This document shows, piece by piece, positions 13,551-21,572 of a DNA stretch of 64,000 nucleotides. Under the pieces are notes generated by a model. The model was not told the DNA's origin and made no database searches. It saw only the letters and a list, made by a program, of their open reading frames with translations. Origin of the DNA: Syntrophorhabdaceae bacterium (GTDB lineage Bacteria; Desulfobacterota; Syntrophorhabdia; Syntrophorhabdales; Syntrophorhabdaceae); the NCBI GenBank assembly GCA_963665295.1, contig OY762209.1:2752001-2816000 (forward strand), written 5' to 3'. Each line of letters opens with the position of its first letter. Positions within the stretch are counted from its first letter, which is position 1. Position numbers and translations under genes: made by a program.

Positions 13551-14153
13551 ATGAAAAGAGTTTCACTATTCGTTCTCGCCCTACTGATTTCCGTTGCATT
13601 CGTTACCACCGGTTTTGCCCAGGATAAGGCCAAGGCCCCTGAGAAACCTGCCGCCGCTGCCGAGAAACCCGCAGCCGCTGCTCCTGAAAAGCCTGCTACC
13701 CCTGAAAAAGCCGCAGCACCCGAACAGGCGGCCAAACCGAAGGCAAAACCGAGAGCGGGTTTTGTGGGCGAAGTCACCGCCATCGACGCCGCAGCGAAGA
13801 TCTTCACCGTGAAGAGCGCGAAAGAAGCGGTAACCTTTGACCTGACCAACGCGAAGTTCAAGGGGTACAAAGATGCCGGCGAGATAAAGACGGGCGACAA
13901 GGTAGTAGTGAAGTACGCCAAGGCCGGGATCAAGGTTGACAAGATCGGCGGAAAGAAAGCCACGAAGGCAGAAAAGGCAAAGAAGGCGGCCTTCAAGGAC
14001 GTGGATAAGAACAGCGACGGCAAGATCACCGTTGAAGAACTCGTGATAGTCTTCGTGAATGTTACCCCGGATCAGTTCAAGGCTCTCGACAAGAACAATG
14101 ACGGCGCCCTTGATGAGTCCGAGTACAAAGCCATGAAACCTGCCGACAAGTAA
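13551..14153 (+). CDS. Secreted protein with Ala/Lys/Pro-rich linker, small beta-barrel-like domain and two EF-hand motifs
   Basis: AGGAGG RBS; signal peptide; (P/A)EKPAAA repeats; DVDKNSDGKITVEEL and LDKNNDGALDESEY; upstream TTGACA-17-TAAAAC at 13481-13509. Confidence 0.8.
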   Translation: MKRVSLFVLALLISVAFVTTGFAQDKAKAPEKPAAAAEKPAAAAPEKPATPEKAAAPEQAAKPKAKPRAGFVGEVTAIDAAAKIFTVKSAKEAVTFDLTNAKFKGYKDAGEIKTGDKVVVKYAKAGIKVDKIGGKKATKAEKAKKAAFKDVDKNSDGKITVEELVIVFVNVTPDQFKALDKNNDGALDESEYKAMKPADK

Positions 14154-16269: not shown

Positions 16270-16506
16270 TCAGGATTTTAGCTCCACAATCTCCCTGATC
16301 TCGGGAATCGCTTCTTTAAGCAGCTTCTCCACCCACAAACTGAGGGCATCGATGCCGCATCAATGAAGCCTGCCATCCACAAGCCTTATCCTCACCACGC
16401 CCAGGGACTCGTCAACGTCCTCGAGCACGGCATAGCCGTCGGCCAGGTCAATGAGCCGCGGCTTCAGGAGATCGATCGTTTCACGGACTCTCTCTGTTAA
16501 GGTCAC
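16270..16506 (-). CDS. NifU/Nfu-like small protein with in-frame TGA (candidate selenoprotein)
   Basis: Manual translation from GTG 16506 (RBS GGGAG): MTLTERVRETIDLLKPRLIDLADGYAVLEDVDESLGVVRIRLVDGRLH-[TGA 16362-16360]-CGIDALSLWVEKLLKEAIPEIREIVELKS*. Nfu-like sequence is present on both sides of the TGA. Confidence 0.75.
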
Positions 16507-16637
16507 TTATACTCCCGATGTGAAAATGATATATGCAGATATTACAATACCTTCTTGGCATGGCCTTCACGTCGCAGCCCTGTGTGCGGCTGATCGGGAA
16601 GACCATGTTCGATGTTCTCCGTTTCAGGAGCGGAAGG

Positions 16638-16826
16638 CTATAAGCCGCCGCGGACGGTGTGATAATTCAAAATGCTGATAAACGCCTCGTCATCAAGGAA
16701 CTCATCGTAGCTTAATTCCTTTGTAACCATGCTACTGCCGCAATTGGGGCAGAAATTGTCTGGGACCTCTCCGTCAAGAAAGGCATAGCCACACAAGTCG
16801 CATACAAACTCATCGGGTATTCTCAA
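16638..16826 (-). CDS. Small rubredoxin-like/zinc-ribbon protein with acidic tail
   Basis: FVCDLCGY...FCPNCGS; TTG start after GAGGAGG RBS. Confidence 0.75.
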   Translation of the reverse strand: MRIPDEFVCDLCGYAFLDGEVPDNFCPNCGSSMVTKELSYDEFLDDEAFISILNYHTVRGGL

Positions 16827-16992
16827 TCGTATTCCTCCTCTTTTCCCTACCCCCGGAAGCCTCCATGTATTTCATATGGATGACGCACCGGGTTCTATGC
16901 TTGCAGAAATCGTTGGGATGGGGACATGATGTTTTGTCTATATCCACGTTTTCTTTGTATTTCAGACAGGTAAGGACTCTCTCATCTGTCAC
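16810..16992 (-). CDS. Small Cys/His-rich hypothetical protein
   Basis: C...CPHPNDFCKHRTRCVIH; overlaps the next gene; promoter-like -10 just upstream of the GTG. Confidence 0.65.
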   Translation of the reverse strand: MTDERVLTCLKYKENVDIDKTSCPHPNDFCKHRTRCVIHMKYMEASGGREKRRNTIENTR

Positions 16993-17067: not shown

Positions 17068-17721
17068 TCAGGAGTATTGATCAAGGATGGCCCGGAAGTT
17101 CTTTTCTATGGTCTGTTTTCCCTGGACCATCTCGCCATGACCCGGGATGAGGTATTCGATGTCGAGTTTCGACAGCCTCTCGATACTCTTCACGAGCAAC
17201 TCGGCGTCTCCTCCATAGAGGTCGGTCCTTCCCACGCCCATATAGAAGACCGTATCCCCGGAGATAAGCACCTTCTTTTGTTCCCAGTAAAGGCAAACCG
17301 CTCCAGGCGCGTGGCCCGGGGTAAGAATTACCCTGAAAGTCTTGTCCCCCACATTGATTATGCCTTCTTTAAGAAAAACCGTGAAGAGCTTGGCAGGGGA
17401 TTGGCAACCCATAGCGAGAAACATCTCTTTGTACCCGTCGTTGAGATAGGCGTACTCTTCCTTGCTTATCCCTTTGATGACACTGTCGTCGAACCGGTCA
17501 AGGGCCTCTATGTGGTCCGGGTGGCCGTGTGTACAGAGCACCATCTTCACAGCCTCCACTGTCAATCCATCCCGCGCCATGCCCTGTATCACGTGGTCAA
17601 AGAGATGGGTGTGGCCGGGGTCTATGAGCATGGGGACCTTTCCGTCAATAAAGACGGCATTGCAGTTGTTCTCCTGATAGGAGACCCATGGGTATGCGTA
17701 AAAATCATCAAAAATCTTCAT
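17068..17721 (-). CDS. MBL-fold metallo-hydrolase (glyoxalase II-like)
   Basis: LIDPG, THGHPDH, TPGHAPG, SGDT, GRTDL, PGHG. Confidence 0.9.
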   Translation of the reverse strand: MKIFDDFYAYPWVSYQENNCNAVFIDGKVPMLIDPGHTHLFDHVIQGMARDGLTVEAVKMVLCTHGHPDHIEALDRFDDSVIKGISKEEYAYLNDGYKEMFLAMGCQSPAKLFTVFLKEGIINVGDKTFRVILTPGHAPGAVCLYWEQKKVLISGDTVFYMGVGRTDLYGGDAELLVKSIERLSKLDIEYLIPGHGEMVQGKQTIEKNFRAILDQYS

Positions 17722-18722
17722 CGTGATTCCTTCTCCTGGATCCTGAATGCCTCATAGTCCATCTCGATCCGATTCACCGTATATGTTTGCGGTACGCCCG
17801 CATCGGCCCGGACCGAAATGGCGGGAGACGTGTTCTTTGCGTAAAAACCGATGATATTGGCGGTCAACCCTATGATCTCGTCATTGAGGGCGCCCTTGAG
17901 CACAGCCTGGGGACCTTTGAAATCCACGGGGGAAAAGAATACATAGGGCGGGGCGCACATGGACTGGAGTCTCTCGTTTTCGTCTTGGTTTCTCCCCACG
18001 ATCAGTTTAGTATCTTCCCTCAACCTGAAGTGCCTGCCGACGCTCAGAAAATCGATGTCCTTCAGAGTGAAGTCTTTGTCTTTCGAAAAGAGCTCCCGGA
18101 GCTTCACGGAGAATATGGGGTCGGTAAGAAGGCACCCTCCTCCCGGCTTGCTGAATTCCTTGAAGTTGTATTTTTTTGCAAGGGTATATTGTGCGGTGCG
18201 AGACCTTCCCGTTATATCGAGAAGGTCCTTCCTGTCGAGGATGCCCTCGATCTCGGGGACCGTGGCGGCGAAGCACCGCCCGGATAGGGGTCTCACGATA
18301 AGACCCTCGAGGCCGCTTTCCTGCTCTATCTGCCTTATAGTCTCCCTTCGCTGGGACATGGGCCTCTGGCCCAGGACTTCTCCTGTCACCACGAAAGAGT
18401 TCCCGGTTTCCGCCATGACGCGGGCGATTATCTTCAACATGTAGATCCTGCAGTCAATGCAGGGATTCATGTTCTTCCCATAGCCGTGCCGGGGGTTCCT
18501 GAGCACGTCGAGATAGTCCTCTTCCTTGTGGCGGATGATGAGTTCTATGCCGAGTTCGGAGGCGGTCTTTATGGCCATAGCCCCCTTTTCCTTATCTCTG
18601 CGGCTCGAAAAGGGCGAGGTAAAATGAAACCCCGTCACCTCTATGCCCTGGTCCATAATGAGCTTCGTGGCGAGTATGCTGTCGAGTCCCCCCGATATGA
18701 GGGATATTGCCTTCTTTTCCAT
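17718..18722 (-). CDS. PP-loop tRNA sulfurtransferase-like protein (ThiI/MnmA-like, no THUMP domain seen)
   Basis: SGGLDS PP-loop, NPCIDCR, TGEVLGQRPMSQ, GGGCLLTDP, GRHFRL. Confidence 0.8.
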   Translation of the reverse strand: MEKKAISLISGGLDSILATKLIMDQGIEVTGFHFTSPFSSRRDKEKGAMAIKTASELGIELIIRHKEEDYLDVLRNPRHGYGKNMNPCIDCRIYMLKIIARVMAETGNSFVVTGEVLGQRPMSQRRETIRQIEQESGLEGLIVRPLSGRCFAATVPEIEGILDRKDLLDITGRSRTAQYTLAKKYNFKEFSKPGGGCLLTDPIFSVKLRELFSKDKDFTLKDIDFLSVGRHFRLREDTKLIVGRNQDENERLQSMCAPPYVFFSPVDFKGPQAVLKGALNDEIIGLTANIIGFYAKNTSPAISVRADAGVPQTYTVNRIEMDYEAFRIQEKESR

Positions 18723-18763
18723 GATATCCTTATGTTTCGAGACGCCCCGGAGTACCGTCCCGT

Positions 18764-19972
18764 CTATATTGTCCCGGGGGTCCTTTCATCAAGGGTATTC
18801 ATCTTGATCCCCGCATCCACGCCGGGCAGGTTTACAACGGGGCTGGTAAGGAGGAATTTTCCCTCTGCCACCCAGCCTTTCAGTATGGTCGCAATCTCCA
18901 CCGCCTTCGGGTAGCTTGAAATAGGAAATGAAGGTATCTCTTTTCCGTTGAAGGTTATCCTGCCGGTCTTCAGTTCGGCGTAGCTCACTTCGCCCAGGCT
19001 GACGGGTTCCCTTTCAGGGTAATCGGATCCGTAGTCGACGACCTGTGCAAAGTAGTCCTCGTCACCCCTGGACGTGAGGTATGCCATCTCTTCATCGAGG
19101 ACAGGTATGGGGATGCCGATGCCCACGAACATGGTAGCCCCGTAGCCCATAAAGCTGGCGCCCCTGAGAAAATTGCTGTTCATCTGTTTCGCGTCGCCGA
19201 TGGTCGCGAGCGTTCCCGCTCCTGCCCTGGGAATACCGTCAGGGCTCCTTTTTACGTCGGGGTTATGCTGGGTTCCGTGCCACGCGACGTAACCGATGCC
19301 GCCCCCGAGGAATATCCTTGTTCCGATGCCTATAGTACGGTACAGGGGGTCGTTGAGGAGCGGGGAGAGTTGGCCGGCGCTCGAATAGTTAGCGCTTCCC
19401 ATGTTCGGCTTCAACACGCCCATGTAGGTATGGATAACCCTGCCCGACAGGTTGACGGCAACGTTGTAGTTCTGATAATCGTTTCGAGGGTTGTAGAGAT
19501 ATGCCTCGTTGACATTGTTCTTGTTTATGTAGGTATCGATCTTCTTCCGCGGGTAACAGTCGGTGCCGTATGCGGAGACGACGAGGTGTATGTCCTTGCC
19601 GTCGACGAATTCCTCTATTACGTGCCCGCCGCCGTACTTGAAAGCGCCGGGGTACACGGTATTTCGGGGATCGTCATCGGGTGTGGCGGTGGCCCCCATG
19701 TAGATGTCGACCGCGGCGAGGCCGCAATATGCGGGAACATCGTTCAGGTAGCATCTTCCTCCGCCGACCTTGATCCTCGGCTTGGAATGGCCCAGATTGA
19801 CGAACATCCCGCTCGAGCACATGGGGCCGAAGGTGCCCGTGGTTACCACATCCACCTCTTCCGAGGCCTTCTTCACGCCTTTTTCCCTGGCGATCCCGAT
19901 CATCTCCTCAGCGGTAACGACGACTACCTTGCCGGTTCTTATCTTTTCGTTTATTTCTTCAATAGTTTTCAA
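18764..19972 (-). CDS. Homocysteine biosynthesis protein (L-aspartate-semialdehyde sulfurtransferase, MA1821/DUF39 family)
   Basis: TTG 19972 after GAGGAGG gives MKTIEEINEKI; VVVTAEE, VDVVTTGTFGPMCSSG, YGGGHVIE, YGTDCYPR, NPRNDYQNY, SPLLNDP, GTQHNP. Confidence 0.88.
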   Translation of the reverse strand: MKTIEEINEKIRTGKVVVVTAEEMIGIAREKGVKKASEEVDVVTTGTFGPMCSSGMFVNLGHSKPRIKVGGGRCYLNDVPAYCGLAAVDIYMGATATPDDDPRNTVYPGAFKYGGGHVIEEFVDGKDIHLVVSAYGTDCYPRKKIDTYINKNNVNEAYLYNPRNDYQNYNVAVNLSGRVIHTYMGVLKPNMGSANYSSAGQLSPLLNDPLYRTIGIGTRIFLGGGIGYVAWHGTQHNPDVKRSPDGIPRAGAGTLATIGDAKQMNSNFLRGASFMGYGATMFVGIGIPIPVLDEEMAYLTSRGDEDYFAQVVDYGSDYPEREPVSLGEVSYAELKTGRITFNGKEIPSFPISSYPKAVEIATILKGWVAEGKFLLTSPVVNLPGVDAGIKMNTLDERTPGTI

Positions 19973-20190
19973 TCTTTCCTCCTCGCCGCCGATGATACGC
20001 TGTAATGGGCGATGTATCGATTTTTGTCCGTTCGGTAAAGGTGCGTCCTCCCCGGTTTCCGGCTTCACGCGCAAGGGAAGCCGCGCGCCGTCATTCCGAC
20101 GCCCATAGTCCGGGCGGAAACGGGTTCTTGAGACCGCTTCGATATTATACACCAATTCGGGTGTAATTTCGAAAGTTTCTACCGTCATAT

Positions 20191-21572
20191 TCATGAGAAA
20201 TCGGACCCTGCACGCGACCGGGGGAAAGCGAGGGACTTGCTTACGGCCTCGAGGGTTTGGTTTTTCACGTTAACCGGGTAAAAGGCGACCAGGAAGACGC
20301 AGAGGAAACAGGGTATGGAAAAAAAAGGAAGAACTGCTGAAAACTGAGCCCGAGGGTCTGAAAGAGTCCTCCCAAGGCGGGTCCCAACATGGAGCCTATC
20401 CGTCCCGCGGCCTGGGTCGATGCGATCCCGGTGGCCCGCATGCCGGTGGGGTATATTTCGCTGCATACTACGTTCAGGGCTGTGGGGGTCCCCACTACAA
20501 GGACCCCGGTGGCGGCCCCCGCGACATAGAGACAGAGGTTCGAAGTAACGGAACCGAAGAAGATAAGGGAGAGTCCGCCAAGAAGATAGGCGAGTATAAG
20601 GCCGTGCTTTCGCCCGACGCGGTCCATCAGGCAGCCCAGGAGTACCCCGCCCATTGCCGACCCCCCGGCCTGAACCATGGCAAAGGAGTAGCTCTTCGCC
20701 AGCGAGAAGCCCCTTTCCACCAGCAGGGACGGGAGCCAGGAGGAAAGGCCGTAGAGGGCCATGGTGTTAAGGAGGTAGGTGGCGCAGACGAGAATTGCCA
20801 TGACCACCGGGCCTCCCCGGAACAGCGGTACCGGGCCTCCCTGTGGCTCCTCCGGAAGGACGAGGTTGTCCTGCGACCACGGGAGAGCCGGGAGGTTCGC
20901 GAACTTCTCGATCTTTCCCGCTTGTTCGAGGGCTTCCCCGCTGAATCCTTTGCCCACGAGGAACCGGATCGATTCGGGAAGGTAGATGCGGAGCACGGGA
21001 ATCAGAAGGAGCGGAAGGAGGCCGAACTGGAAGACCGGGCGCCAGCCGTACTTCGGGATGAGGATCATGGAAAGGGAGGCGGCCACCACCCACCCGAAGG
21101 TAAACCCGCTGACTGCAGCGGTTACGAGACGTGCGCGGACAGACGAGGGAGAAAATTCCGAGAGGAGGGCCACGGTAAGAGGAAAGGCGCCGCCTATGCC
21201 GAGACCGGTAAGGAACCGGAGAACAGCAAGGAACCGGTAATCCGGCGCAAGGGACGCACATCCGCTGAGAAGGGAAAAGAGCGCGATGGCCGCCATGAGG
21301 GCCTTTCTTCTCCCTATGCGGTCCCCGAGAACGCCGAACCCGAGGGCCCCCATCATGAGGCCCAGGAATCCGCAGGACATCAGCGTTCCGCACTGGAGCG
21401 GTGTGAGCGCCCATTCTTTCAGAATAACCGGAACGGCATAGGCGAGGATCTGGAGGTTGTAACCGGCGGCAGCGAGGACGAGGCAACTCGTAACCAGCAT
21501 AAAGGCGTGAAATCTGTTGAAGGGAAGCCCGTCCAGCCACGGGAAGATCATTGTTTTTCTGTCGTTCTTCAT
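20191..21572 (-). CDS. MFS transporter (aromatic acid:H+ symporter-like) with an apparent frameshift near the 3' end
   Basis: GDRIGRRK, RFLTGLGIGG, SEFSP, PESIRFL, MDRVGRK, SEIYPTGMRA. The called frame ends at 20265; the expected last helix and tail lie in the frame ending at 20191. Confidence 0.85.

Follow-up and report, generated by a model that had tools for sequence, protein, structure and literature searches.

A gene on the minus strand of the window—i.e. the whole 64,000-nucleotide stretch of Syntrophorhabdaceae DNA analysed here—almost certainly encodes a selenoprotein, with selenocysteine (Sec, U) predicted from its sequence at codon 49. Its product has, as modelled, an Nfu fold, and it belongs to a real selenoprotein family that is absent from the selenoprotein catalogues we checked. 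The family comes in two forms, U-C (this gene; Syntrophorhabdales) and C-U (other Desulfobacterota), and both chalcogen residues are always kept while their order flips. The gene and its elements are located as follows, in window coordinates:

16270..16506, minus strand: gene for the putative Nfu-fold selenoprotein (fold modelled with AlphaFold2), with GTG start, TGA stop and 78 codons.
16512..16516, minus strand: ribosome-binding site GGGAG, seen in the sequence 5 nt 5' of the GTG (16506-16504).
16360..16362, minus strand: in-frame TGA, codon 49, predicted to be read as Sec; TGA in 97 of the 98 homologous sequences listed, and selA, selB, selC and selD in the genome.
16357..16359, minus strand: Cys50, partner in the vicinal U-C pair; Cys in 38 of 38 U-C representatives, and preceding U in the C-U form.
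16331..16347, minus strand: upper stem-loop of the putative SECIS element, GCCCUC-AGUUU-GUGGGU, with its loop at 16341-16337; +13 to +29 after the UGA, under synonymous constraint.

The frame runs from the GTG through 47 further codons to the TGA at 16362-16360, and then through 29 codons to a stop TGA at 16272-16270. An earlier note on this DNA had described a GTG with a ribosome-binding site opening a frame that the TGA splits into 48 and 29 codons, missed by the list of open reading frames; this matches the sequence exactly, and the mechanical list for the window has no entry for the gene. Truncated database relatives (P0002-P0004) start at the same position as the GTG. Annotation shortens the gene to a 48-residue hypothetical protein, one NCBI member is filed as a 52-residue hypothetical protein, and a word-index protein search returned 3 matches, each ending at the TGA. 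Contigs from three (X1, X3, and X4) of four runs cover the TGA position with zero letter differences, X1 or X3 possibly being the window's own source, whereas those of X5 stop short of it; from these agreeing contigs, an assembly error is not apparent as far as can be seen. The read-through protein scores 23.7 bits against Pfam NifU (PF01106; E 5.5e-5), below the cut-off of 27, and no NCBIfam 20.0 model matched it at E 0.1, its relatives reaching about 20 bits, also below cut-off. Matches to Pfam DUF6331 (E 0.012) and CD81 were taken as chance matches to the artificial CCG.

Among relatives, a match with a single in-frame TGA is found in 29 of 60 genomes (12 of 36 in the host family, and 14 of 19, 3 of 3 and 0 of 2 in the other three families). 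This exceeds chance, since the TGA always lies within G-G-[RK]-L-x-U-C-G; in all 29 the sequence around it reads G-G-[RK]-L-x-U-C-G-x-x-A-L-[SG]-L-W. The distribution is patchy, with the gene in 0 of 3 genomes of the host genus. Wider sampling covered species genomes (35 loci), 251 genomes of the phylum, and metagenomes (the best 80 of 102), and the matches listed amount to 173 domain hits, of which 115 are distinct at the DNA level—i.e. 84 U-C, 14 C-U, 12 canonical CxxC, and 5 others. Three anchor-less rows were excluded from the distinct set: one is L091, and the others are 5' pieces of the frameshifted L039/L084 copy. The 261 pattern matches in viral contigs include no relative.

The earlier note had named homologues with a non-Cys residue at this codon as evidence of a simple nonsense mutation or sequencing error, and this outcome did not occur. 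Among the 98 distinct family DNA sequences listed, the Sec codon is TGA in 97 (83 U-C and 14 C-U) and TAA in 1, and a Cys, Trp or Arg codon occupies the column in none, both contig scans being built on family peptide patterns that diverged Cys forms could escape. A HMMER search of 1.84 billion representatives gave 75 matches without any Cys-for-Sec form; these are TGA-truncated products, canonical CxxC Nfu, a Sec-less paralogue described below, and two database proteins, read as protein only, with Trp in the column (P0005 and P0008). P0008 is 95% identical to TGA-bearing loci, and its Trp probably stems from gene calling with table 4. The TAA copy (L095:2523-2744 / L096:4001-4222) is close to L011, has its SECIS Ala codon relaxed to GCT, and is probably a pseudogene; one other homologue is frameshifted (G057, L039/L084). 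Conservation 3' of the TGA, also raised in the earlier note, is of the coding kind: amino-acid identity is 0.56 after the SECIS vs 0.52 before the TGA, and all 48 representatives (family sequences under 85% nucleotide identity) are free of stops over the 16 codons that begin with the SECIS Ala.

The hairpin downstream of the UGA has the consensus GCCC-U-C-RGUYU-G-U-GGGY (GCCCUC-RGUYU-GUGGGY) across homologues, with its loop at +19 to +23, i.e. 18 nt after the UGA, and a G in second place followed by U. It agrees with the bacterial SECIS model as described in a 2026 review, in which G holds position 1 or 2 of an apical loop of 3-9 nt, 16-37 nt after the UGA, with an MFE <= -7.5 kcal/mol (PMC13188914); the MFE here is -17.3 kcal/mol for 48 nt. 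The imperfect, SECIS-compatible hairpin that had been proposed earlier is thus present and conserved, but its 3-nt GUU loop with G first is better read as the 5-nt RGUYU closed by a C-G pair, with G second. Compared with shuffles, folding gives z values of -0.75 to -2.27, which are not significant save for one folding window. Folding by itself is weak evidence, and the case for a SECIS rests on the comparative signal.

This signal is a lock on codon choice over A-L-[SG]-L. Across the 48 representatives, Ala is GCC in 48 of 48, the following Leu is CTC in 46 of 48, Ser is AGT in 30 of 30, and the last codon is YTG in 45 of 48, yet AGT makes up 8% of Ser codons genome-wide. By contrast, a control Ala five codons past the hairpin Ala is drawn from all four codons. 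Where residues are identical, their codons differ at a rate of 0.70 ahead of the TGA and 0.77 downstream of the hairpin, but of 0.18 within the four SECIS codons. The five stem pairs are kept in 24 of 24 U-C sequences, and a covariation test on these 24 found none, the stem being invariant. In the divergent L091, the closing C-G is swapped to G-C around GGUCU, a double change seen by eye. The loop shares its register with the GGUCU loop of both Sec-fdhA genes in this genome, also at +19 to +23, and in the C-U form it sits 3 nt further (+22), like the G at +22 in mvhD. The SECIS motif occurs once in the genome.

The host genome carries selA, selB, tRNA-Sec (selC), and two selD, i.e. the full set of genes that the earlier note had proposed to look for. 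Other host genes with an in-frame TGA are two FdhA, four MvhD, and one SelD. The selD genes, just one of which has the in-frame TGA, lie at G000:C1:639779-640693 and 5230927-5231841. Two Sec-MvhD genes (G000:C1:4704768-4705139 and 5386384-5386755) have equal scores and the same sequence around the TGA, which suggests a recent duplication. Because TGA ends 1668 of 3416 frames of at least 300 codons and is the commonest true stop, the genetic code is standard, and a code with TGA as Trp was ruled out. Across genomes, selA is found in 65 of 67, and one carrier, the 80% complete G049, has tRNA-Sec without selA or selB. Nearly all genomes therefore use Sec, which fits recoding but does not separate carriers from non-carriers.

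We infer Sec insertion at the UGA, as the earlier note had proposed, from this conservation and machinery together: the TGA is conserved, the hairpin is codon-locked, and the genes for Sec incorporation are present. That the gene is instead no selenoprotein, its TGA being a nonsense mutation, a sequencing error, the end of a 48-residue peptide or a Trp codon, is extremely unlikely. The TAA copy, the frameshifted homologue, and the two proteins with Trp would suit such a reading, as would the fact that Se in the protein is deduced from sequence, but TGA is kept in 97 of the 98 listed sequences spanning several families, coding conservation continues past it, the host uses TGA as an ordinary stop, the Trp of P0008 is probably a table-4 call, and the codon-locked hairpin sits 3 nt further on in the C-U form and has disappeared from the Sec-less paralogue.

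This paralogue is represented by four distinct sequences (L063:5671-5898, L074:5333-5560, L126, and L136), each 0.3-1.3 kb from a U-C gene, and it nests within the U-C clade of the tree. It reads G-x-L-I-A-N-G-I-N-A-C-[CS]-L-W; U, the adjacent Cys, and the hairpin are all gone, and A-C-[CS] is gained in the last helix. Their joint loss makes the paralogue a control for the SECIS reading, and its sequence suggests that a site deprived of Sec is given up rather than turned into Cys-Cys. A separate remnant, a degenerate 3' fragment of a Sec-Nfu gene, lies at L060:7048-7164, 1.4 kb downstream of an intact copy.

The modelled Nfu fold has a mean pLDDT of 85.6, with 69 for residues 41-50, i.e. the U-C loop, which is its least sure part. 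The top six Foldseek matches of the model are all Nfu domains, VIA gives Z 10.1 and rmsd 2.6 with 74 aligned against CnfU (2z51), and the family profile matches 2z51 at E 1.1e-10. In the family-profile alignment with CnfU and S. epidermidis NifU, the first Cys of CxxC is matched by Arg, the second by U, and the Pro after it by Cys50. The register rests on the family because a single-sequence phmmer alignment put C50, not U, on the second Cys. The C-U form, G-G-R-L-C-U-[GA]-G-P-D-V-A-L, is one residue longer and aligns by eye without gaps to the canonical G-A-C-x-x-C-P-x-S-x-x-T-L, which supports U on the second Cys. Three earlier proposals are supported here: distant Nfu homologues have the second Cys of CxxC at the TGA column, with no Cys form found inside the subfamily; the first Cys is replaced by Arg (R-L-H-U in this gene, with Arg/Lys in 45 of 48 representatives); and the result is a vicinal U-C pair, Cys following U in all 38 U-C representatives.

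The gene is a second, specialised Nfu paralogue beside a normal CxxC Nfu. A second Nfu match occurs in 27 of 29 carriers, and canonical CxxC Nfu is kept by the host and by the seven other U-C carriers whose second match was read. In a tree of 88 rows, the Sec family and its derivatives split from 36 CxxC Nfu with support of 99/86 when all columns are used, and with an SH-aLRT of 81 when the motif and SECIS columns are removed, both trees being built on a short alignment with the long-branch C-U protein L091 at the base. A degenerate pattern for CxxU Nfu in the phylum, run without a positive control, matched 0 of 401 genomes, and a family search of 401 genomes gave no stop-bearing match among the best 150 of 533.

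Compared with known Nfu/NifU C-terminal domains (PF01106; CnfU/NFU2 2z51, human NFU1 CTD 2m5o, S. epidermidis 1xhj, and E. coli NfuA), the product shares fold, length, detectable homology, and a reactive residue at the second Cys of CxxC. It differs in having no CxxC; Arg/Lys and Sec take its place, with a new Cys on either side of Sec, and the canonical T-L-K-M-G-I-E has become A-L-[SG]-L-W-[AV]-[ED], shaped by the SECIS. The Sec family also falls below the cut-offs of Pfam and NCBIfam (PF01106, TIGR03341, and TIGR02000), forms a separate branch, and coexists with normal Nfu. It would work like an Nfu-fold soft-ligand protein but, reading R-L-H-U where canonical members have CxxC, stands outside canonical Nfu. 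The redox-inactive second Nfu domain of plant NFU1-3 is likewise described as lacking CxxC (PMC5890173), and the family profile fits it and the first domain equally well. However, it has neither Cys nor Sec and is fused to an active domain; the Sec-less tandem paralogue is its closer parallel.

Adjacent Cys and Sec are shared with SaoL, SaoB, SaoC, HgcA, KCU-star, MbdU, and CopZ-type proteins, but these have other folds, none is listed with Nfu, and their NCBIfam models are unmatched. The HesB-like selenoprotein (TIGR01911), which we take to be linked to A-type carriers, has an A-type (IscA/HesB) fold and a UxGP motif and is not an Nfu. Like the present protein, it is a selenoprotein of small size, akin to a family of Fe-S carriers (PMC13188914). 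Both orders occur within a single family of Fe-S binders in the case of the CopZ-type (2Fe-2S)-binding protein, with forms 1 (GxUC) and 2 (CU) (PMC13188914). Among the 119 families in Table 1 of the 2026 review there is no Nfu/NifU entry (PMC13188914), and no selenoprotein model of NCBIfam 20.0 matches the gene product. NifU/Nfu goes unmentioned in the main texts on BSepDB (PMC13326102), deep-Sep (PMC12013277), and SelCysML (PMC13745706) and in that of a 2022 review (PMC9312934), as well as in the deep-Sep supplement and the part of the BSepDB supplementary file that was covered. No Nfu selenoprotein appeared among the matches listed by full-text literature searches. The gene adds an Nfu-fold family to a selenoprotein catalogue that has none. 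Unlike most selenoprotein families it showed no Cys form, which makes it a small, tractable test of what Sec does beyond Cys. The two forms, C-U (loop at +22) and U-C (loop at +19), also let vicinal Se/S chemistry and SECIS spacing be compared as a natural experiment.

Within the window, the gene is the last in a series of co-oriented genes, which includes:

17068-20194, minus strand: HcyBio (PF01837), ThiI-like, and metallo-beta-lactamase-fold genes, co-oriented; a possible sulfur-incorporation cluster.
16638-16826 and 16810-16992, minus strand: two small Cys-rich ORFs between the metallo-beta-lactamase-fold gene and the Sec gene.

One of the small ORFs encodes a 62-aa zinc-ribbon/rubredoxin-like protein, below Pfam cut-offs, and the other a 60-aa protein without a family; a relative of the former is also found upstream in L080. 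The U-C form has no conserved neighbourhood among the clustered loci, where recurrent neighbours track kinship. At 13 C-U loci, by contrast, the gene directly upstream encodes an Isf-like flavodoxin-fold flavoprotein (CxxCxxC) fused to an ArsC/LMWPc half that keeps its cysteines, usually with DUF166 before the fusion. One such fusion lies at L075:2755-3741, and a search of 68 genomes found full-length copies in 10. In L091, the Sec gene comes immediately after sufC-sufB; sufC-sufB or sufB also heads the gene run in L075/L085 and, as sufB, in L079, yet sufB is near the C-U gene in only 3 of 8 loci. The SufB-like proteins of C-U loci score best on the SmsB model, yet under its cut-off. Genome-wide, sufB is present in 7 of 7 C-U genomes tested and in 2 of 29 U-C carriers vs 10 of 31 non-carriers; none was found in this genome, which has four NifU_N-domain genes. 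Some other C-U loci have genes for flavodiiron protein, rubredoxin, peroxiredoxin, and ferritin in their vicinity. Obligate links of the U-C form were rejected for SufB (sufB in 2 of 29 carriers), for DUF166 (0 of 61 genomes of the order), and for the Isf-ArsC fusion (full length in 3 of 61 genomes of the order, and not in the host).

As to function, we lean, at somewhat short of an even chance, towards a specialised dimeric Se/S-ligated Fe-S carrier or repair protein. We favour this reading because the dimer would still give four soft ligands and because the C-U neighbours belong to Fe-S assembly and oxidative stress. Specifically, SelB would bind the hairpin 18 nt past the UGA, and Sec would go in at codon 49. 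The protein would dimerise through the loop preceding the last helix, as in canonical Nfu, where a [4Fe-4S] cluster is held between two monomers via CxxC (PMC9585516). Each subunit would contribute an adjacent Se/S pair (U-C or C-U) in place of CxxC, and the dimer would thereby offer four soft ligands (2 Se and 2 S) for a labile Fe-S cluster. The cluster would come from the host scaffold, SufC-SufB/SMS-like in C-U lineages and NifU/IscU-type here, and the protein would deliver or repair clusters, Sec possibly giving quicker ligand exchange and resistance to over-oxidation under oxygen exposure.

Two chalcogen residues that are always kept, sufC-sufB in the C-U context, and the Nfu fold all speak for such a carrier. 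Against it, the protein has lost the CxxC spacing by which Nfu binds its cluster, and ligands side by side require a different geometry; the U-C form is without conserved neighbours, the host is without sufB, and sufB lies near the gene in only 3 of 8 C-U loci; and a normal Nfu is present, so that no carrier is lacking, while the gene is patchy. A fuller version, which we regard as speculative and unlikely, would have an obligately Se-dependent Nfu branch whose homodimer holds an Fe-S cluster on vicinal Se/S pairs and serves as carrier or repair factor for SMS, with the Cys having switched sides of Sec in Syntrophorhabdales. SMS is described as having no known carrier (PMC12192291). If Sec-Nfu does carry clusters for SufC-SufB, this bears on how the minimal SMS distributes Fe-S clusters, and vicinal Se/S cluster coordination, if true, is not described for Nfu.

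The earlier note had favoured redox or S/Se carrier chemistry, and we rank modified Fe-S binding slightly above both because the C-U form is linked to sufC-sufB. Redox chemistry is nonetheless a serious contender, if on balance an unlikely one: the protein would be a small shuttle whose U-C/C-U pair cycles between selenolate/thiol and a vicinal selenenylsulfide, reducing partner cysteines such as those of the ArsC-like domain or of damaged Fe-S proteins. A vicinal selenenylsulfide would account just as well for the strict adjacency and for the lack of a Cys form, and the absence of Cys-for-Sec from both the 98 listed DNA sequences and the 75 protein matches suits a chemistry that two adjacent thiols perform poorly. 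No Nfu domain is known to us to catalyse redox reactions. According to the 2026 review, Cys homologues exist for nearly all families of selenoproteins (PMC13188914), and the Gly-Cys-Sec-Gly tail of mammalian thioredoxin reductase is a precedent for a vicinal selenenylsulfide (PMC10298544). The 13 C-U genes directly behind the flavoprotein-ArsC/LMWPc fusion and the flavodiiron, rubredoxin, peroxiredoxin, and ferritin genes near some loci point the same way, but the full-length fusion was not found in the host and occurs in only 3 of 60 relatives of the order, and the U-C loci are without a conserved reductase partner.

We consider it improbable that the protein is a sulfur or selenium carrier, with a persulfide or selenide on Sec that is freed by the adjacent Cys and passed to a scaffold or thiolation enzyme. 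SMS is described as having no desulfurase and using sulfide (PMC12192291), and the gene lies co-oriented downstream of the ThiI-like gene and the HcyBio sulfur-incorporation gene, a ThiI-like gene also being near in L146 and L115. In the clustered set, however, only 3 loci share this arrangement, and neither a desulfurase nor a rhodanese-relay or sel gene cluster accompanies the family in general. Binding of a soft heavy metal or metalloid (Hg, Cu, and As) by the vicinal pair is very improbable. The ArsC-like domain beside the C-U form and the CU/CC dipeptides of SaoL, SaoB, and HgcA, proposed heavy-metal binders (bioRxiv 10.1101/2022.07.06.499078), are set against a lack of metal efflux or mer/hgc genes among recurrent neighbours and a fold that points to Fe-S handling.

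Elsewhere in the window, a gene at 13551-14153 on the plus strand encodes a protein that looks secreted and has two EF-hands and a linker rich in Ala, Pro and Lys.
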